Shown one piece after another: positions 5,164 through 55,955 of a DNA stretch of 64,000 nt. Numbering within the stretch: position 1 is the stretch's first letter; every line of letters begins with the position of its first letter. Source of the stretch: Patescibacteria group bacterium. GTDB lineage: Bacteria > Patescibacteriota > Saccharimonadia > Saccharimonadales > JAZKJC01. Made by a program: the position numbers and the translations under genes. The notes under the pieces are model-generated. The model was not told where the DNA came from, did not search any database, and was given only the letters and a program-made list of their open reading frames with translations. The stretch is taken from the NCBI GenBank assembly GCA_040384565.1, contig JAZKJC010000005.1, positions 12,796-76,795 on the forward strand. Reading direction: 5' to 3'.

Positions 5164-7323
5164 GTGTTAGAAAATCTATTGATAGGACTAAATCCAGAAC
5201 AGCAACGGGCGGTGGAGACTACTGAGGGTCCACTGCTAATATTGGCCGGAGCAGGCACTGGCAAGACCAAGACACTGACGCACCGGATTGCCAATTTGAT
5301 TGCTAGCCGCCGCGCCACGCCGTTTAATATTTTGGCAGTTACGTTTACTAATAAAGCCGCCAAAGAAATGCGCGAGCGGGTGGCAGCACTTATAGGTGAT
5401 AATGCCCAAAACCGATCTTTTATGCCTTACATGGGTACATTTCACGGTATTTGCGTGAGGATTCTTAGGCAAGATGGTGAATATGCCTCTGTCCCTAAAA
5501 ACTTTGTGATTTTTGATGAGGGTGATCGCCAGAGTGCCATTAAGCAAGCCAGCAAGCAGCTAATGCTGGATGAAAAGTCTTTTCCTGCACGTACGCTCTC
5601 CAGCCTGATCAGCAGTGCCAAAAATGAACTAATAAGCCCTGTAGACTTTGTGGGTAAGGGCAGCGGACCTGTGCATGCAGCCGCTGCCAAGGTTTATCCG
5701 CTTTACCAAAAAATCCTCAAAGATAACGGTGCGCTGGATTTTGACGATCTTATCGGCAGAGTTGTCCATATGCTGCAAACTAATCAAGAAATTCGAACCA
5801 AATGGCAGACACAGTTTGCCTACATCATGATTGACGAGTATCAGGATACTAACGCAGCCCAATATAAACTCATTAAACTGCTTACCAACGACAAGCATAA
5901 TATAGCTGTGGTTGGGGATGACTGGCAATCAATATATTCGTGGAGAGGTGCGGATTTCCGTAATATCCTAAACTTCGAGAAAGATTATCCAAAGGCAACA
6001 ATTATCAAGCTGGAGCAAAACTACCGCAGCACCAAAGCAATTCTGGATGCCGCTCACGCTGTCATCACCAAAAACGCTCAGCGGTCTGACAAAAAACTAT
6101 GGACTGACGCGGGCATGGGCAAGCCGCTGCAGATTATGCAAGTCCAAAGCGAACGTGCCGAGGGCGAATCCATTATCCGTCGCATTAAAACAGCCACGGA
6201 CTTACGCGCCCAGAACTTTAATGATTTCGCGGTGTTGTACCGTACCAATGCTCAAAGCCGCGCGGTGGAAGAGTCTTTTATACGCTACGGTATACCTTAT
6301 AAAATTGTCGGCGGCCAGCGCTTTTATGACCGCAAGGAAATAAAAGACATCATGGCGTATTTACGTCTAATCTATCAACCAAATGACCGTGTCAGTTTTG
6401 AGCGCGTCGTAAATGTGCCAACCCGGGGCATCGGCACTAAATCCGTAGAAAATTTCTATTCCTGGATGGCTGTACAAGGACAGTCCTTGTACAGTAGCCT
6501 TGGGCGGGTAGCCGAATGTAATGAGCTGACTACTAAGGCTCGTAATGGCTTATCAGAACTTGGAAATATATTGGAAAGTTTCCGCGAGCTTATGGACACG
6601 ACACCCTTGCCAGTGTTGTTAGACAGCTTGATCAGGCGGATTGACTATATGGCTTATCTGGATGATAAAACGCCGCAAGGAGAGGCCAGGCAAGAGAACG
6701 TTCGTGAGCTATTAAGCGTGGCTAAAAGCTACCAGGAATTCGGGTTGGAGGGCTTTTTGGAAGAAACCTCTCTAATTAGCGATATTGACAGTGCGGATTT
6801 TGGTTCCAACGCAGTAACCTTGATGACTCTACATGCCGCAAAGGGTCTGGAGTTCCCGGTAGTGTTCATGGTTGGAATGGAAGAAACCATCTTTCCTCAC
6901 TCCCGGGCAATGTATAACCAGTCCGAGATGGAAGAAGAGCGCAGGTTGTGCTACGTAGGCATGACCAGGGCAAAAGAAGAGTTATATCTCCTACATGCTA
7001 CAAGCCGCTTGCTATACGGCGGCATGCAGCATAATCCACCCAGCAGGTTTTTGAGTGAGATAGACGGCGAAGTACATTTGGCCTCCGGCCTAGACAACGA
7101 CTTCTCTAAGCTTTCCCATTTCCAAGATTTCCAAGGCCCGGCCTTGGAAATAGCGGGCGAACCACGTTATATTCCTGAGCTATTGGAGGGGGATGGTGTT
7201 AAACACCAACTGTTTGGAATGGGCACTGTGCTGGAGATAGAGGGCGACAACGCTACCATCTATTTCAAAGGCAAAGGTACAAAGAAATTGAATGTAGCTT
7301 TCGCGCCGTTGGAAAAGTTGTGA
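5164..7323 (+). CDS. pcrA: ATP-dependent DNA helicase, UvrD/PcrA family
   Basis: 719-aa ORF. Walker A AGAGTGKT, DEYQDTN, QNYRST and TLMTLHAAKGLEF superfamily-1 helicase motifs. Confidence 0.85.
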   Translation: MLENLLIGLNPEQQRAVETTEGPLLILAGAGTGKTKTLTHRIANLIASRRATPFNILAVTFTNKAAKEMRERVAALIGDNAQNRSFMPYMGTFHGICVRILRQDGEYASVPKNFVIFDEGDRQSAIKQASKQLMLDEKSFPARTLSSLISSAKNELISPVDFVGKGSGPVHAAAAKVYPLYQKILKDNGALDFDDLIGRVVHMLQTNQEIRTKWQTQFAYIMIDEYQDTNAAQYKLIKLLTNDKHNIAVVGDDWQSIYSWRGADFRNILNFEKDYPKATIIKLEQNYRSTKAILDAAHAVITKNAQRSDKKLWTDAGMGKPLQIMQVQSERAEGESIIRRIKTATDLRAQNFNDFAVLYRTNAQSRAVEESFIRYGIPYKIVGGQRFYDRKEIKDIMAYLRLIYQPNDRVSFERVVNVPTRGIGTKSVENFYSWMAVQGQSLYSSLGRVAECNELTTKARNGLSELGNILESFRELMDTTPLPVLLDSLIRRIDYMAYLDDKTPQGEARQENVRELLSVAKSYQEFGLEGFLEETSLISDIDSADFGSNAVTLMTLHAAKGLEFPVVFMVGMEETIFPHSRAMYNQSEMEEERRLCYVGMTRAKEELYLLHATSRLLYGGMQHNPPSRFLSEIDGEVHLASGLDNDFSKLSHFQDFQGPALEIAGEPRYIPELLEGDGVKHQLFGMGTVLEIEGDNATIYFKGKGTKKLNVAFAPLEKL

Positions 7324-10281: not shown

Positions 10282-10764
10282 ATGGGGCCAACAAGAAACA
10301 CCGGATATATGCTTCAGCACCTCTCTTCTGTGCTTGCTAAGCAATCTGATCAAGCCTTGCGGGAACGTTTGGGGATAGGCTTGTCTCAGCTAAAAATTCT
10401 TTGGGCACTTGAGGGCTCGCCAAACCCTTATGCTGCTCGCTTGCAACAAAAAGAAATTGCCGAATGTTTAGGCCAAACAGAAGCTAGTATCAGCCGGCAA
10501 ATTAAGCTAATGCATGAAAAGGGGCTCTTACAAACAACGATTAACCCTACCAATAAGCGCGATCACCTGACAGCCCCAACCGCCAAAGGTCTGCGCATCA
10601 GCGAGGAAGCCATGGATATTTTGAACAATTACCATGCGCCAATGTTTGAAGATCTGGGCGAAAAAAAGCAACAACAATTACTGGAAATATTCACGCAAAT
10701 GCACAAATTATCCTGCCAACCCGGCAAAACTGGTGCCTGCCATCGCCCGTTTAGTGTTGAATAA
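10282..10764 (+). CDS. MarR-family transcriptional regulator
   Basis: 160 aa. The winged-helix segment QKEIAECLGQTEASISRQIKLMHEKGLL is typical of the MarR family. Confidence 0.75.
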   Translation: MGPTRNTGYMLQHLSSVLAKQSDQALRERLGIGLSQLKILWALEGSPNPYAARLQQKEIAECLGQTEASISRQIKLMHEKGLLQTTINPTNKRDHLTAPTAKGLRISEEAMDILNNYHAPMFEDLGEKKQQQLLEIFTQMHKLSCQPGKTGACHRPFSVE

Positions 10765-12113: not shown

Positions 12114-12130
12114 ACATAAGCGTTGTAATT

Positions 12131-12139
12131 TGCTATAAT
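12131..12139 (+). promoter_or_regulatory. extended -10 box TGcTATAAT upstream of tmRNA
   Basis: tgctataat lies about 30 nt before the mature tmRNA 5' end, consistent with a processed precursor. Confidence 0.4.
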
Positions 12140-12168
12140 ACGTATTCCGTCGATTAGACGGATCATAC

Positions 12169-12552
12169 GGGGCTGAATTTAAGCTCGACGTTGGACTTTA
12201 ACGGTTAGATCAGCAGGTCGCTTGTCAGCGTATAGACGAACCCAAATAGTTGTAAAACTTTTTGATCGCGCAAAGACTTTTGTAGCGAGTGCTTTTGCAC
12301 CCGCCAAGTCTTTCGCAATAGCTTAAGTTACGACTTAAGCCGTGCCTGACATGACATCAGATAGTGCCAAGGTACGTCAAATCATCTGATTGCTCTAAGT
12401 GACTGATCCATAAACTTAGCTAAGATAATGGATTAACCTGTAAAACTTTTTGGTCATTTCTATGTTTTACAGAATTCAAATGACATATACCTGTAGGATA
12501 GACTAACCAGTTAAACTAGCGGACCCGGAGGCGGTATCCGGCAGCTCCTCCA
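12169..12552 (+). ncRNA. ssrA: tmRNA (SsrA)
   Basis: The 5' GGGGCTGAATTTAAGCTCGACG pairs with the 3' CAGCTCC, giving a G3:U wobble in a 7-bp acceptor stem. A T-arm-like CCGGAGGCGGTATCCGG is present and the 3' end is TCCA. An internal tag frame reads ...AKTFVASAFAPAKSFAIA-TAA. Confidence 0.85.
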
Positions 12553-12557
12553 AAAAC

Positions 12558-12590
12558 GCATCAGAAGATAATTCTGGTGCTTTTTTGTTT
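12558..12590 (+). terminator. rho-independent terminator after tmRNA
   Basis: gcatcagaa / ttctggtgc forms a 9-bp stem (one G:U) followed by tttttt. Confidence 0.65.
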
Positions 12591-12625
12591 GTAGGCGGGG
12601 GCAATGTCTATTACAATCTAAGCAC

Positions 12626-24177: not shown

Positions 24178-24187
24178 GGCCCAATTA

Positions 24188-24275
24188 ACTGTTTCTCGTT
24201 CACCATGATCTGTTTACCATTGAAAACAGAAAATAGATAACGTACGGTAAACGCAAAATAGTAAACTGTAAACGG
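24188..24275 (+). promoter_or_regulatory. GTAAAC-box module U1 upstream of cysteine desulfurase (shared with the mnmA upstream region)
   Basis: The blocks ttcaccatg, tttacc, gtaaacgca and agtaaa-n2-gtaaacgg occur in the same order as at 42513-42626. The GTTTAC/GTAAAC boxes are arranged as inverted heptamer arrays. Confidence 0.45.
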
Positions 24276-24280
24276 AATCT

Positions 24281-29346: not shown

Positions 29347-29353
29347 GCAAATT

Positions 29354-29418
29354 AGCTTACAGCTTACAGCTTACAGCTTACAGAGAAGAACTGTCTACCG
29401 TCTACTGTTTACTGTATG
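29354..29418. repeat. tandem heptamer arrays (AGCTTAC x4 perfect, then CYGTNTA x4)
   Basis: agcttac x4 at 29354-29381, followed by ctgtcta ccgtcta ctgttta ctgtatg at 29391-29418. Both lie in the atpA-atpG spacer. Confidence 0.85.
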
Positions 29419-29440
29419 CTTGCAGATCGGAGATCTGCCT

Positions 29441-30304: not shown

Positions 30305-30361
30305 AAAATAAATACAATTTCACATTTTCCAAACAAGTTTCAGGCCATCGTCTTATCTGGC

Positions 30362-31739
<1,378 letters not shown>

Positions 31740-31745
31740 CGAGAT

Positions 31746-31777
31746 ACGTAGAACGTATAACGTATAACGTAGTACGG
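31746..31777 (+). repeat. heptamer array ACGTAKA x4.5, 5' arm of an outer hairpin enclosing A2
   Basis: acgtaga acgtata acgtata acgtagt acgg. The segment cgtataacgtagtacgg pairs with cctactacgttatacg at 31958-31973. Confidence 0.75.
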
Positions 31778-31794
31778 TTGAAACCAAGCCGTTA

Positions 31795-31957
31795 TATACC
31801 CATGATAAGCCACTTTTCGGTTTTTAGGGTTAAAGTTTTATGAGTCAGAAGTTTTTGAAATTTTATCAGCGTACCGGTAGTACGGTTATTAAATTTCGGG
31901 AAGTTCTGGCTATAAAAGGCGAGTCTAAGAGCCGGAAAGTGGTTTATCATGGGTATA
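31795..31957 (+). repeat. Family-A long imperfect palindrome, copy A2
   Basis: TATACCCATGATAAGCCACTTTTCGG...CCGGAAAGTGGTTTATCATGGGTATA. The outer arms pair with 24 Watson-Crick pairs and 2 G:U (hand count). It lies between atpD and atpC. Confidence 0.85.
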
Positions 31958-31983
31958 CCTACTACGTTATACGTACTACGACC
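31958..31983 (+). repeat. 3' arm of the outer heptamer hairpin flanking A2
   Basis: cctactacgttatacgtactacgacc is complementary to the 31761-31777 array units. Confidence 0.7.
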
Positions 31984-41397: not shown

Positions 41398-41404
41398 GCG
41401 TAGT

Positions 41405-41567
41405 CATACCCATGATAAACCACTTTCCGGCTCTTAGACTCGCCTTTTATAGCCAGAACTTCCCGAAATTTAATAACCGTACTACCGGTACGCTGATAAA
41501 ATTTCAAAAACTTCTGACTCATACAACATCAACCCTAAAAACCGAAAAGCAATTTATCATGGGTATA
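41405..41567 (-). repeat. Family-A long imperfect palindrome, copy A3 (inverted relative to A2)
   Basis: The reverse complement of 41406-41523 is identical to 31839-31956 (118 nt, hand alignment). The remaining arm differs but still pairs through five G:U wobbles on the minus strand. Confidence 0.85.
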
Positions 41568-41598
41568 GCAATCCGAATTAGTTTACGTTTATGCTAAT

Positions 41599-42510: not shown

Positions 42511-42512
42511 GG

Positions 42513-42626
42513 CTGTTTACGGTTTACTATTTCCCCTTCACCATGCATTTACCGTTTTCTGTTTTCCATGGCAAACGGCTCAAGTGTAAACGCATAGAAA
42601 ACAGTAAATGGTAAACGGCAAAACAG
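42513..42626 (+). promoter_or_regulatory. GTAAAC-box module U2 upstream of mnmA
   Basis: Three GTTTAC-type boxes are followed by four GTAAAC-type boxes. The blocks ttcaccatg, tttacc, gtaaacgca and agtaaatggtaaacgg occur in the same order as U1. The outer arms ctgtttacggtttact / agtaaatggtaaacgg..aaaacag are complementary. Confidence 0.45.
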
Positions 42627-42631
42627 GTATC

Positions 42632-42640
42632 TGGTAGAAT
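42632..42640 (+). promoter_or_regulatory. extended -10 box TGgTAGAAT, 9 nt before the mnmA ATG
   Basis: tggtagaat is followed by agagcgact and then ATG 42650. Confidence 0.45.
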
Positions 42641-42649
42641 AGAGCGACT

Positions 42650-43831
42650 ATGAAAACAGTGTATGTTGGGATGAGTGGTGGGGTGGATAGCTCTGTGACG
42701 GCGGCTTTGCTTAAAGAGCAGGGGTATACAGTTGTGGGCGTGTATATGAAAAACTGGAGCCAGGACTTGCCGGGCATGCCATGTACATGGAAAGAGGATT
42801 ATCAGGATGCTAAGCGGGTGGCCGTGCAGCTTGGTATTGACTTTAAGGTGTATGATTTTGAAAAGCAGTACCGGCATAAGGTTGTGAACTATATGCTTAA
42901 CGAGTACAAAGCTGGTCGTACCCCAAACCCTGACATAATGTGCAACCAGGAGATCAAATTCAAACTTTTTTTAGAAACCGCTCTCGAGGATGGCGCGGAC
43001 TTGATTGCCACCGGGCACTACGCCCGGATAGGACGAGCAATGAGCCATGAGCAACGAGCAAAGAACGAAAAGGGGGCTGATTCGTTGCTCACTGCTCACT
43101 GCTCACTGCTCACGGCAGCCAACAAAGAGAAAGACCAGACTTATTTTTTGTATAGGGTAACTAAAGAAGCGCTGTCAAAAAGTCTAATGCCTATAGGAGA
43201 ATTTGAGACTAAAAATGAAGTCAGACTGTTGGCTAAAAAAATGGGCCTGGCTACGGCGGATAAAAAAGACAGTCAGGGGATTTGCTTTGTCGGAAAGGTC
43301 GGTATCAAAGATTTCTTGCTGCATGAGCTGGGGCCTCAACCAGCTGGTGCCATTCTGAATCAGAACGGCCAAGAAATTGGCGAACACGACGGAGCGATAT
43401 TTTATACTATTGGTCAGCGACACGGTTTGGATGTTGGGGGCGGTTTGCCGTATTACGTGGTTGGAAAAGATATGTCAAAGAATCAAGTATTCGTCACGAC
43501 TGACTTGCAGGATGAAAAGCTCTGGCAGGACACCTTGAATCTTACGGATGTACACTGGATCAGTGGTGAGCCTTTAGCTCTGAGCAATGAGCAAAGAGCA
43601 ATCCATTCGACAAGCTCAGGACACGTGAGCAATGAGGGACTACAGGTTCGGACTCGTTATAGGGCTCCATTGGTGAGAGCTACGCTACAGGTGGTGACTT
43701 CTAGCGCCAAAAATAGCGAAACCACGCTACAGGTAGTGTTGTCTGATCAAGTCCGTGCCGTAACCCCGGGTCAGTCAGCAGTTATATATGCTGGCGAGCA
43801 GGTACTTGGCGGCGGCATAGTCTTATATTAA
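42650..43831 (+). CDS. mnmA: tRNA-specific 2-thiouridylase
   Basis: PP-loop GMSGGVDSS, plus TGHYAR, KDQTYFL, DSQGICF and TPGQSAV motifs. It contains two heptamer-repeat insertions (see repeats). Confidence 0.9.
   Translation: MKTVYVGMSGGVDSSVTAALLKEQGYTVVGVYMKNWSQDLPGMPCTWKEDYQDAKRVAVQLGIDFKVYDFEKQYRHKVVNYMLNEYKAGRTPNPDIMCNQEIKFKLFLETALEDGADLIATGHYARIGRAMSHEQRAKNEKGADSLLTAHCSLLTAANKEKDQTYFLYRVTKEALSKSLMPIGEFETKNEVRLLAKKMGLATADKKDSQGICFVGKVGIKDFLLHELGPQPAGAILNQNGQEIGEHDGAIFYTIGQRHGLDVGGGLPYYVVGKDMSKNQVFVTTDLQDEKLWQDTLNLTDVHWISGEPLALSNEQRAIHSTSSGHVSNEGLQVRTRYRAPLVRATLQVVTSSAKNSETTLQVVLSDQVRAVTPGQSAVIYAGEQVLGGGIVLY
43035..43113 (+). repeat. Family-C heptamer palindrome, copy C1, in-frame inside mnmA
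   Basis: Arm gagcaat gagccat gagcaac gagcaaa gaacgaa, loop aagggggctga, arm ttcgtt gctcact gctcact gctcact gctcac. It is translated as RAMSHEQRAKNEKGADSLLTAHCSLLTA. Confidence 0.75.
43582..43636 (+). repeat. Family-C heptamer array, copy C2 (direct units only), in-frame inside mnmA
   Basis: gagcaat gagcaaa gagcaat at 43582-43602, and gagcaatgag again at 43627-43636. It is translated as SNEQRAI...VSNEG. Confidence 0.6.
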
Positions 43832-48239: not shown

Positions 48240-49550
48240 ATGCTTGATAAGATAAAGAGAATTCCTGGCTCTGCCGCAGCTTTTGCTAAAAGCAAGAAAA
48301 AGAATAAAAAAGCTGGCTCAACGCAATATATGGTTGCGCTGGATATTGGGACGGAGTTTGTAAAAGCTTTAGTAGCCAAAGTAGAGGGCGACAAGTTATC
48401 AATCATTGGTGTTGGCCGTAAGCGCCAAGGATTAACAGACATGCAAGCAGGTGCTATTTCTGACATTGCTGGTGTGGTAAAAAACTGTGACGCAGCCTTA
48501 AACGAGGCTGAACAGCAGGCTGGTGTAAGTGTCCGGACGGCTATTATAGGCATAGCCGGAGAACTAGTAAAAGGCACAACTACAACGGTGAGAGTACGGC
48601 GCAAAAACCCAAGCAAACAGCTGGATATGGAAGAAACCGAACAGATTATCGGCTTGGTGCAAGAACGGGCTCAGATTAAAGCCAAACAACAACTTGCCTG
48701 GGAGCTGGGCGGTAAGGATGTTGAGATACGGCTTGTTAACAGTGCGCTAGTGCGGATTGACATTGATGGATATCCGGTAACAAACCCGATTGGGTTCCAG
48801 GGTAAAGAAGTCATGGTGCAGCTCTACACCGCCTTTGCTCCGCTAATTCACATCGGCGCTCTGGAACGCACGGCTCAAGAACTGGATATGGATCTCATCG
48901 CCGTAGCGGCTGAGCCTTTCGCAGTGGCCCGCTCGGTCATTGGTAACGAACAAGACGCTAGTATGAACGCAGTGCTGATGGACGTGGGCGGTGGAACTAC
49001 CGATATAGCCGTATTACAGGACGGTGGTGTCCAAGGAACTAAGATGTTTGGTATTGGCGGGCGGGCATTTACACGTGCAATCGAGCGTGAAATGAGTGTT
49101 CCATTTAAACAAGCCGAAGATTACAAGCTGGCATACGGTGCGCACCATGTAACCGCTGCCCAAGGCACTGCAATCAAGCACGCGCTAGATAAAACTCTTG
49201 ATGTATGGATAAGCGGTATTGAACTAGCTCTAGGTGAATTTACCATGAATGATCACTTGCCTAATCAGCTTTTACTTTGCGGCGGTGGTTCTTCGCTTGA
49301 TATGCTGATGGAGAAGCTCGAACAAGGCAGTTGGTACCGGGAGCTGCCATTTACCAAACGCCCAATAGTACAGCATATCCAACCAGAAGATGTCGTAGGT
49401 ATTACAGATAAAACCGGGGCGGTAGATGACCACACATTTATTACGGCAATGGGGCTACTAAGAGTAGGATTAGACACTCTGCAAATGCAGACTGGCTCTG
49501 AAACCACGGGCAGCATAAAGCAGCGACTAAACAGGATGTTACAGATATGA
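48240..49550 (+). CDS. ftsA: cell-division protein FtsA (actin-like ATPase)
   Basis: ALDIGTEFVKALV and DVGGGTTDIAV phosphate-binding motifs, with an overall FtsA layout. Confidence 0.8.
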   Translation: MLDKIKRIPGSAAAFAKSKKKNKKAGSTQYMVALDIGTEFVKALVAKVEGDKLSIIGVGRKRQGLTDMQAGAISDIAGVVKNCDAALNEAEQQAGVSVRTAIIGIAGELVKGTTTTVRVRRKNPSKQLDMEETEQIIGLVQERAQIKAKQQLAWELGGKDVEIRLVNSALVRIDIDGYPVTNPIGFQGKEVMVQLYTAFAPLIHIGALERTAQELDMDLIAVAAEPFAVARSVIGNEQDASMNAVLMDVGGGTTDIAVLQDGGVQGTKMFGIGGRAFTRAIEREMSVPFKQAEDYKLAYGAHHVTAAQGTAIKHALDKTLDVWISGIELALGEFTMNDHLPNQLLLCGGGSSLDMLMEKLEQGSWYRELPFTKRPIVQHIQPEDVVGITDKTGAVDDHTFITAMGLLRVGLDTLQMQTGSETTGSIKQRLNRMLQI

Positions 49551-49669
49551 TAACAGCTAAGAGTAATGAGCTAAGAGCAATGAGCAATGAGTTTTTGGTT
49601 GCAGTTGAAGCCAAATCACTGCTCACTGCTCACTGCCCACTGCTCACTTTGTCGGGAGAGAAGCTATGA
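49547..49669 (+). CDS. 40-codon mini-ORF formed by Family-C element C3, ATGA-coupled at both ends
   Basis: MITAKSNELRAMSNEFLVAVEAKSLLTAHCPLLTLSGEKL. Its ATG overlaps the ftsA TGA and its TGA overlaps the next gene's ATG. It uses the same heptamer reading phase as C1 in mnmA. Confidence 0.35.
   Translation: MITAKSNELRAMSNEFLVAVEAKSLLTAHCPLLTLSGEKL
49559..49648 (+). repeat. Family-C heptamer palindrome, copy C3
   Basis: Arm gagtaat gagctaa gagcaat gagcaat gag, loop of about 24 nt, arm tcactgc tcactgc tcactgc ccactgc tcact. Each unit pairs 6 of 7 with one A:C, which would be G:U on the minus strand. Confidence 0.8.
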
Positions 49670-55788: not shown

Positions 55789-55946
55789 TATACCTTAGCA
55801 GAAATTGGTTTTCGGGGTTGATGATTTCCTGGTCAGAAGTTTCTGAAATTTTATCAGCATATCCTTTGGTATGGTTATCAAATTTCGGGAAGTTCTGGCT
55901 GGAAAGGACAAGTCAAAAAGTCGGAAAGTAGTTTCTGTTGGGTATA
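55789..55946 (+). repeat. Family-A long imperfect palindrome, copy A4
   Basis: It starts at the base after the obg TAG. The termini are tataccttagcagaaattgg... / ...tagtttctgttgggtata. It shares the internal blocks attttatcagcata and ggttatcaaatttcgggaagttctgg. Confidence 0.8.
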
Positions 55947-55955
55947 TGCTAGACT
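55947..55955 (+). promoter_or_regulatory. extended -10 box TGcTAGACT, 6 nt before the sbcB ATG
   Basis: tgctagact is followed by ggctgc and then ATG 55962. It lies immediately after the right end of A4. Confidence 0.45.

Follow-up and report, generated by a model that had tools for sequence, protein, structure and literature searches.

The stretch of DNA considered here (hereafter the window) comprises 64,000 nucleotides (nt) of contig JAZKJC010000005.1, from a Patescibacteria group bacterium of the Saccharimonadales, and includes at positions 42650 to 43831 of the + strand an intact mnmA gene that encodes a protein of 393 residues. This protein matches the Pfam families tRNA_Me_trans, tRNA_Me_trans_M and tRNA_Me_trans_C, as well as the solved MnmA structures in the PDB (E = 6e-90), and its alignment keeps the invariant PP-loop and Cys98/Cys212 columns. 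The MnmA of the source genome is deposited as NCBI protein MES2971116.1, and the names given to homologues also point to Saccharimonadales/Patescibacteria. The gene carries two in-frame inserts; the first of them (43035-43113) is a palindrome of 79 nt built of heptanucleotide units, and the anatomy, distribution and possible origin of this element are the subject of this work.

The heptamer hairpin of mnmA

The DNA of the element reads, in order, GAGCAAT GAGCCAT GAGCAAC GAGCAAA GAACGAA, then AAGGGGGCTGATTC, and then GTTGCTC ACTGCTC ACTGCTC ACTGCTC AC. Tandem Repeats Finder (TRF) detected a left array of period 7, with 3.9 copies of GAGCAAT (43035-43061), and a right array of the same period, with 4.0 copies of TGCTCAC and 100% matches (43086-43113); as inverted arms, 43035-43057 and 43082-43104 have 23 nt each, are 87% complementary and leave a gap of 24 nt. 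The left arm, as delimited by TRF, by the inverted repeat I3 and by the codon layout, occupies positions 43035 to 43062 (GAGCAAT GAGCCAT GAGCAAC GAGCAAA). The loop (43063-43081, the GAACGAAAAGGGGGCTGATTC region) encodes NEKGADS, and its sequence GGGGCTGATTC is the same in L001, the closest orthologue with DNA; judged from its residues, this loop may be a remnant of the native turn codons. The right arm (43082-43113) consists of TCGTTGCTC followed by three copies of ACTGCTC and a final AC, and encodes LLTAHCS followed by LLTA; its register matches that of the native CTG CTC ACG GCA (LLTA) codons, into which it runs on as LLTAHCS and LLTAAN. The arms are arrays over their whole length, flanked by ATAGGAC on the left and by GGCAGCC on the right; no target-site duplication or direct repeat is visible in the sequence flanking 43035 and 43113, and no terminal inverted repeats separate from the heptamer arrays are visible at the hairpin.

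The pattern GAGCARTGAGCARTGAGCA, with up to three mismatches, has 13 matches in the window versus 0.04 expected, and all of them are confined to three places (43035-43118, 43575-43600 and 49561-49645). When folded as RNA, the 89-nt stretch that holds the mnmA hairpin reaches -40.2 kcal/mol on the + strand (z = -5.35, a value equalled by 0 of 200 shuffles) and -44.4 kcal/mol on the - strand (z = -6.32). The same insert was also found in P0001, an MnmA from another contig that differs by one residue from that of the window, and in the Logan assembly L205, whose sequence agrees with the window at every position along 6105 nt; therefore, it is not an assembly artefact.

The element falls in the linker that joins the TGHYA and KDQTYF motifs (43025-43129), which has 35 codons versus 14 in most relatives; the excess of 21 residues corresponds to 63 nt, i.e., nine heptamers, and the linker is 16 residues longer than that of the MnmA chains 9hlv and 2hma. 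An AlphaFold2 (AF2) model of the window MnmA, with a predicted local distance difference test (pLDDT) value of 82 and a predicted template modelling (pTM) score of 0.82, has as its closest structures the MnmA entries 2hma and 2der/2det/2deu (TM scores of 0.78-0.86 for 2hma and 2der). In this model, the first insert has a pLDDT of 57-60 and lies between two retained β-strands (residues 126-130 and 150-154), and it is modelled as a poorly ordered excursion where a β-hairpin turns on the surface of the catalytic domain; the low confidence is what would be expected of a surface loop, the location anticipated in a preliminary description made from the DNA alone.

The second insert (43574-43624) adds 17 residues, and in the AF2 model the corresponding region (residues ~309-328) has a pLDDT of 49-59. 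It includes 3.1 copies of TGAGCAA (43581-43602, TRF), which can be read as GAGCAAT GAGCAAA GAGCAAT at 43582-43602, and it is directly followed by a patch of 1.7 units of GTGAGCAATGAG (43625-43636, inverted repeats I11 and I14). The array at 43581-43602 is direct only and forms no hairpin (fold z = -1.8 and -0.7). The right arm of the first element (43082-43113) is 78% complementary over 32 nt to 43566-43597, at the second site and 452 nt downstream, and from this complementarity a long-range pairing of both regions within the mnmA mRNA is possible. L001, with 80% amino acid identity, has a first insert of equal length and lacks the 17 residues of the second; hence, the first insert predates the split between the window and L001, and the second one is younger than this split. 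The length of the linker is the same in both genes, but different arm units pair.

The way in which stop codons are absent from these arrays is informative, given that a perfect (GAGCAAT)3 array has a TGA in all frames. In the first array of the window, the sole unit with its last base on codon position 1 is GAGCAAC, which gives CAA CGA, so that the C at 43055 stands where a T would create an in-frame TGA; L001 likewise avoids the TGA at the corresponding unit. In the second array the middle unit is GAGCAAA and gives CAA AGA, where again a T would give an in-frame TGA. Replacement of the TGA-making T by C or A in these three arrays indicates that the element is translated and has been selected to stay open, and the stop codons are retained in the intergenic GAGCAAT hairpin at 49561-49645. 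The C that avoids the stop is paired with a G on the opposite arm in both orthologues (C43055-G43084 in the window and C31-G67 in L001), and in L001 this G67 has the cost of a Thr-to-Ala change. The length of the insert is a multiple of three in each of the 30 relatives that bear one.

The mnmA turn and other heptamer arrays in Saccharibacteria

The linker was compared in 81 mnmA loci of Saccharibacteria. In 51 of them it has 14 residues with the sequence R[IV]xDGQLLTAxNxx, and the remaining 30 show inserts of +3 to +61 residues, all at the one turn; 7 was the clear best period in 13 of these 30. One-sided tandem arrays are present at this turn in L013 (AGAGCCA), L046 (CAACGAC), L047 (CGAGACT) and L048, and full hairpins in L071 (GTTCGNA/ACGAACT), in L059, in L002, L203 and L204 (the CATGNNN family), and in the window and L001; in L014, another palindrome is nested beside the heptamers. 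In a neighbour-joining tree of MnmA, the lineages with inserts are dispersed among sisters that have none. The loop is similar to the native turn residues in three lineages, i.e., the window, L071 and L059; given this resemblance and the continuity of the right arm with the native LLTA codons, the arms appear to flank host codons instead of having arrived as one block, and to have grown on both sides of these codons. In L002 a single unit family occurs both upstream of mnmA and within it, and in L071, as in the window, the unit of the first site recurs at the second variable loop of the gene.

The preliminary description had presented the segment at 43035-43113 as a heptamer-built palindrome, inserted in-frame and different from ordinary MnmA sequence; the palindrome is borne out by the TRF, inverted-repeat and fold results, the translation given for it was correct (RAMSHEQRAKNEKGADSLLTAHCSLLTA), and its nature as an insertion agrees with the alignment of orthologues. 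The second in-frame array that it placed at 43582-43602, in a variable segment, was recovered by TRF and falls within the 17 residues missing in L001, and a further copy of the heptamer family is present in the intergenic hairpin at 49561-49645. The segment is thus not a conserved, ordinary part of MnmA, and the repeat is present at other loci.

Period 7 is the sole enriched tandem period in the window. Likewise, when 1.47 Mb of Saccharibacteria DNA was examined for arrays of 2.8 copies or more, 45 had period 7, compared with 14 of period 6, 6 of period 8 and 29 of period 9. Nineteen of these 45 heptamer arrays are in no open reading frame (ORF), mnmA holds 15, and the remaining 11 fall within further ORF calls that are in part doubtful. 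Inverted repeats in the same DNA were located with a seed-and-extend finder. Saccharibacteria genomes hold heptamer-array hairpins mainly between genes. The 15 arrays in mnmA, together with nine compact hairpins, fall in a gene that accounts for 6.4% of the coding DNA; this excess is real, but in part it follows from the selection of the locus on account of its insert, and a specific targeting of mnmA is not claimed. Outside mnmA, an in-frame heptamer array (AGAATCA/AGAGTCA, four copies, encoding ENQESRVKSQ) was found at L069:12578-12605, in an ORF similar to alanyl-tRNA synthetase. Peptides of the QESR type are present in the second variable loop of the MnmA homologues P0003, P0031 and P0075. 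Further palindromes were noticed within mnmA at L014:2899-2950 and at L016:10946-11015 and 10393-10465; they comprise a perfect 22-bp hairpin, a heptamer hairpin in the region of the C-terminal barrel, and one of the GTCATCCTGAAC type at the first site.

In the window, a second hairpin of the GAGCAAT family (49561-49645, + strand) is formed by a GAGCAAT-type arm, an unrelated loop of 24 nt and a TCACTGC arm, and occupies the spacer that separates the stop of an ftsA-like gene, at 49550, from the start of the following gene, at 49666. In the orthologous copy (L023:15487-15564) the arms are near-identical, but the loop is not related. The copies of this family share their arms only, with no relationship between the loops of 43063-43081, 49594-49615 and L023. 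Directly upstream of mnmA there is another hairpin of period 7 with a different unit family, GTTTACN/GGTAAAC (42515-42625, + strand, inverted repeat I2; fold z = -2.75 on the + strand and -3.97 on the - strand). Heptamer-periodic spacers, often with inverted arrays, were found at 42511-42649, 24178-24280, 29347-29419, 30305-30431, 31740-31771 together with 31954-31980, and 49551-49665. The spacer that follows the ftsA-like gene has 0-20 nt in most species, and in at least nine it bears heptamer arrays or hairpins with differing units. Such arrays are seen at 49551-49665 of the window, at L023:15479-15568, and in L016, L017, L021, L025, L040 and L071; the units AAATTTC (L021), AAACTTC (L040) and AAGTTTC (L016) show a one-base difference that runs through the whole array, as concerted evolution predicts.

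The hairpins at 43030-43118, 49556-49650 and 42515-42625 are more stable by 4-9 kcal/mol on the - strand, because the A·C mismatches of the + strand become G·U pairs. Among the Saccharibacteria loci, the antisense strand was the more stable one in 12 of 16 heptamer hairpins, of which the four GAGCAAT copies are not independent, versus 34 of 94 other hairpins. Almost all genes of the window are on the + strand, no tRNA or tmRNA genes were detected in its 64 kb, and strong structure is seen in the long spacer of 512 nt at 12114-12625. The window also has a palindrome of ~165 nt that resembles a miniature inverted-repeat transposable element (MITE), with four intergenic copies (430-594, 31794-31956, 41398-41570 in reverse, and 55789-55950); the family has the ends TATACCCATGA and TCATGGGTATA and a mean column identity of 80%, and each copy is a long near-perfect hairpin. 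The copy at 31794-31956 sits in the loop between inverted ACGTATA arrays (31746-31771 and 31954-31980), a nesting similar to that in mnmA of L014. This arrangement recalls Nostoc, where small dispersed repeats lie within heptamer arrays.

Beyond the Saccharibacteria, the pattern GAGCAAYGAGC-N10-40-TGCTCACTGCTCA was found in at least 120 stretches of metagenome contigs from soil and peat. The contigs that bear it (L083-L202) are mostly of 55-60% GC, and 123 of the 126 copies in the contigs listed are outside long ORFs. TopA of L140 shares 91-93% identity with proteins whose names are mostly Candidatus Sulfotelmatobacter or Solibacter, which indicates that this contig belongs to the Acidobacteriota; hairpins with the motif are present in it, for example, at 5716-5778 and 10439-10500. 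The metagenome hairpins, (TGAGCNN)n, have four to five units per arm, in which a GAGC core is conserved at intervals of 7 nt, and their stems comprise 5-6 paired bases per unit with mismatching spacers; at the variable positions, pairing is no better than chance (572 versus 560 ± 10 for shuffled units). They are mostly located after genes; the flanking genes were co-directional in 25 cases, convergent in 12 and divergent in only 3. A search of viral contigs did not detect the motif. In Rfam, the hairpins of ten loci with the motif gave only sub-threshold look-alikes of miRNA precursors, and the one real match was a tRNA.

Origin of the element

On balance, we consider that the mnmA element is probably a heptanucleotide simple-sequence hairpin that originated by slippage and template switching, is translated, and is tolerated on a surface β-hairpin. 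According to this proposal, a pair of inverted arrays, each with four to five heptanucleotide units, and a short loop between them would have grown, or been seeded, at the tip of the β-hairpin. Replication slippage in a 7-nt register would first build a tandem array, for which the native CTGCTCACNGC (Leu-Leu-Thr-Ala) already holds a 7-nt proto-repeat; then, a template switch, whose target could be on the same strand or in a different array of this family, would create the inverted arm and keep both arms matched; finally, selection would retain only those versions that are free of stops and lengthen the gene by a multiple of three. The components of this route have precedents: the heptanucleotide repeats of other bacteria have been explained by polymerase slippage in a 7-nt register (PMC4679880), and template switching creates hairpin stems next to a sequence and keeps these stems paired (PMC8794818). 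In Saccharibacteria, the absence of an insert, the one-sided array and the full hairpin, all at one turn, are the stages that this route predicts; moreover, tandem-only arrays and hairpins of unrelated heptamers scattered over the tree point to a generic repeat-generating process that acts at a permissive site. The sharing of units within the window, L002 and L071 suggests that arrays seed or convert one another over short distances. Slippage and template switching would thus be the generating mechanism, and at the level of the protein the insert would be neutral.

Several results weigh against this proposal. The hairpin DNA is kept more strictly than the protein code requires: between the window and L001 the third codon positions are identical in 23 of 27 cases inside the hairpin versus 164 of 348 outside (Fisher p = 1e-4), where synonymous sites are near saturation, and the blocks of nine codons on either side are at background. 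The same was observed between L002 and L203, with a different heptamer family (19 of 25 versus 180 of 346, p = 0.02), and neutral slippage with template switching has no obvious account of this conservation. It is also unlikely that local sequence alone gave rise to the GAGCAAT unit three times in 64 kb, in L023 as well, and in at least 120 metagenome stretches, so that some transfer between loci or sequence-specific maintenance is needed besides a local origin. In addition, there is no direct sign of ongoing slippage, the number of units being equal in three assemblies of the gene. The sequence of the arms could be kept either by selection on a role at the level of the nucleic acid or by continuing conversion to the family consensus. 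A recombination tract was rejected as the source of the high identity between the window and L001, since the third-position identity is at background in both adjoining nine-codon blocks.

The first of these possibilities leads to a different explanation, namely that the hairpin is a functional cis-acting RNA or DNA element within the coding sequence, whose arms are under purifying selection; we regard it as possible, albeit unlikely. It could be a protein-binding stem or one similar to repetitive extragenic palindromes (REPs), acting on mRNA stability, processing or translation pausing. In its favour, the conservation at synonymous sites is limited to the element in two independent pairs of orthologues, and the intergenic copies of the window and L023 have near-identical arms around a randomised loop. 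The pairing of the stop-avoiding C with a G in both orthologues, for which L001 pays with an amino acid change, is consistent with it too, as are the repeated gain of hairpins at one site of mnmA and the abundance of the GAGC-core family in metagenome contigs, mostly after genes. The metagenome family is likened to the mnmA arms on account of the same unit, the four to five units per arm and a similar loop size, with one contig assigned to the Acidobacteriota and most others in its GC range. However, mnmA does not need the hairpin, given that 51 of 81 relatives have no insert and the remainder have unrelated sequences, and the variable positions of the metagenome hairpins pair no better than shuffles. 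Moreover, no terminator-like tail was called by a terminator/promoter scan at 43035-43113, 42515-42625 or 49561-49645, no Rfam 15 family matched at the gathering score across the window, and it is the antisense strand, not that of the mRNA, that is the more stable in most heptamer hairpins. Compensatory pairs, for their part, can arise from template switching without selection (PMC8794818). We suggest only tentatively that the GAGC-core arms are a sequence-specific element, either recognised by a trans-acting factor or acting as structured RNA or DNA, which would make codons 129-155 of mnmA dual-coding. If so, the repeated capture of hairpins by the mnmA turn would reflect a use, such as the control of the mnmA mRNA, and not mere tolerance.

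Two more specific roles were considered and set aside. An autoregulation of mnmA by tRNA mimicry is at odds with loops of at least 14 nt that are unrelated between lineages, and with the absence of the insert in most species; a link to the Lys, Glu and Gln codons read by MnmA-modified tRNAs, suggested by the E, Q and K encoded by the left arm, is not sustained by the inserts of other lineages, which are not consistently rich in these codons.

It is doubtful that the element is a discrete non-autonomous mobile element, of the MITE type or similar to a Rickettsia palindromic element (RPE), that was moved into mnmA as a block by a transposase. The GAGCAAT family does occur at other loci of this genome and in other genomes, the ~165-nt palindromes of the window are a true MITE-like family, mnmA of L014 and L016 holds other palindromes, and the RPEs illustrate that in-frame palindromic insertions can persist (PMC10969869). 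Against a block insertion, the copies are alike in their arms only, with loops and lengths that differ; there are no distinct terminal repeats and no target-site duplication at 43035 or 43113; the arms flank apparent native turn codons, with the right arm continuous with them; other lineages have one-sided tandem arrays at the same turn; and viral contigs yielded no copy of the motif. A third explanation, in which the segment would not be translated, being bypassed by ribosomes that hop over the hairpin or removed as an intervening sequence, has in its favour a stable hairpin within a coding region. Bypassed hairpin inserts are known from gene 60 of phage T4 and from the byp elements of yeast mitochondria. 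Nevertheless, it is highly improbable here: the frame is open throughout the element, with no take-off and landing codon pairs and no in-frame stops, the replacement of the TGA-making T in each of three arrays would be pointless if the stretch were skipped, and all 30 inserts of the relatives are multiples of three. Finally, the length of this linker varies naturally among bacteria, but an ordinary variable loop with a repetitive appearance due to chance or assembly is already refuted by the 13 matches versus 0.04 expected, by fold z values of -5.4 and -6.3, and by the presence of the element in L001, P0001 and L205, and its probability is negligible.

Related repeat systems and significance

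The proposal of a simple-sequence hairpin generated by slippage and template switching places the element near the heptanucleotide repeats known as long simple sequence repeats (LSSR) or short tandemly repeated repetitive sequences (STRR). As summarised in PMC4679880, which covers the cyanobacterial STRR, the TAACTGA repeats found in Beggiatoaceae and Cyanobacteria, and a survey by Mrázek et al. (2007), these are the closest class: tandem 7-nt units in three to five copies, mostly intergenic, with several unit families per genome that recur at many loci. Three or more head-to-tail copies of a 7-nt unit are indeed present here (3.9, 4.0 and 3.1 according to TRF), and one unit is found at several, mostly non-genic loci, although the mnmA copy itself is genic. 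The differences are that the arrays of the mnmA type are typically inverted pairs that form hairpins, that they occur in a reduced genome of the candidate phyla radiation (CPR), and that the gene of an essential enzyme holds them in-frame, both in the window and, with no fewer than 14 further arrays, in relatives, whereas published surveys indicate that units that are not a multiple of three avoid coding regions (PMC4679880).

The preliminary description had compared the element with RPEs. The comparison holds in that a palindromic repeat lies in-frame at a permissive, fold-compatible position of an intact housekeeping gene (PMC10969869). It fails with regard to size and whole-length similarity: RPEs have ~150 bp and form families that can be aligned over their whole length, each with a conserved peptide (PMC10969869), while the mnmA element has 79 nt (63 nt net), is outside the range of 100-150 bp, has only 7-nt units in common with its other copies, without a whole-length family alignment or a conserved peptide, and seemingly grew around native codons. 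It also lacks the terminal inverted repeats and the target-site duplication by which a MITE is recognised. The hairpins that arise from template switching and from quasipalindrome correction (PMC8794818; PMC8604942 for coding sequences) may resemble it in the inverted copy placed beside an existing sequence and in arms kept complementary by multi-base changes, with which the C-G pair at the stop-avoiding unit is in agreement; the structures in that literature are single stems and not arrays of short units, and no unit family is dispersed to several loci. In the mitochondrial genes of Nematomorpha (PMC6649704), inverted repeats in translated genes are likewise under a joint constraint of protein and structure, but those repeats are long and perfect (up to 284 bp) and their arms encode conserved protein, in contrast to the mnmA arms, which are both inserted and non-conserved.

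Like REPs and bacterial interspersed mosaic elements (BIMEs), enterobacterial repetitive intergenic consensus (ERIC) sequences and Correia elements, the heptamer hairpins are short imperfect palindromes found after genes, depleted between divergent genes and present in many copies per genome, and they do not need to code for anything. The palindrome of REPs is fixed and bears a conserved 5' tetranucleotide, and these elements are linked to the REP-associated tyrosine transposases (RAYTs). The heptamer stems differ from them in their 7-nt periodicity, with only part of each unit paired and mismatching spacers in between.

Heptamer-array hairpins have drawn attention for decades, in cyanobacteria and in other organisms, but no role has been assigned to them. 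A literature search returned nothing on heptanucleotide repeats in Saccharibacteria/Patescibacteria or in Acidobacteria, nor on the literal repeat strings, and no description of a heptamer repeat-generating process in CPR bacteria. The genomes of these organisms are very small and are thought to be strongly streamlined; a process that writes 7-nt arrays and hairpins into spacers and essential genes is a source of change in genome and protein length. The series found at a single β-turn, from no insert to a one-sided array, a full hairpin, and a hairpin with a nested palindrome, depicts how simple-sequence DNA becomes protein loops, and the mnmA arrays illustrate how stop codons are removed from simple-sequence repeats. 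The arms are conserved more than the coding requires, and the motif also occurs in soil metagenomes that include at least one contig of Acidobacteriota; both findings turn into a testable question whether heptamer-array hairpins may have a sequence-specific function.

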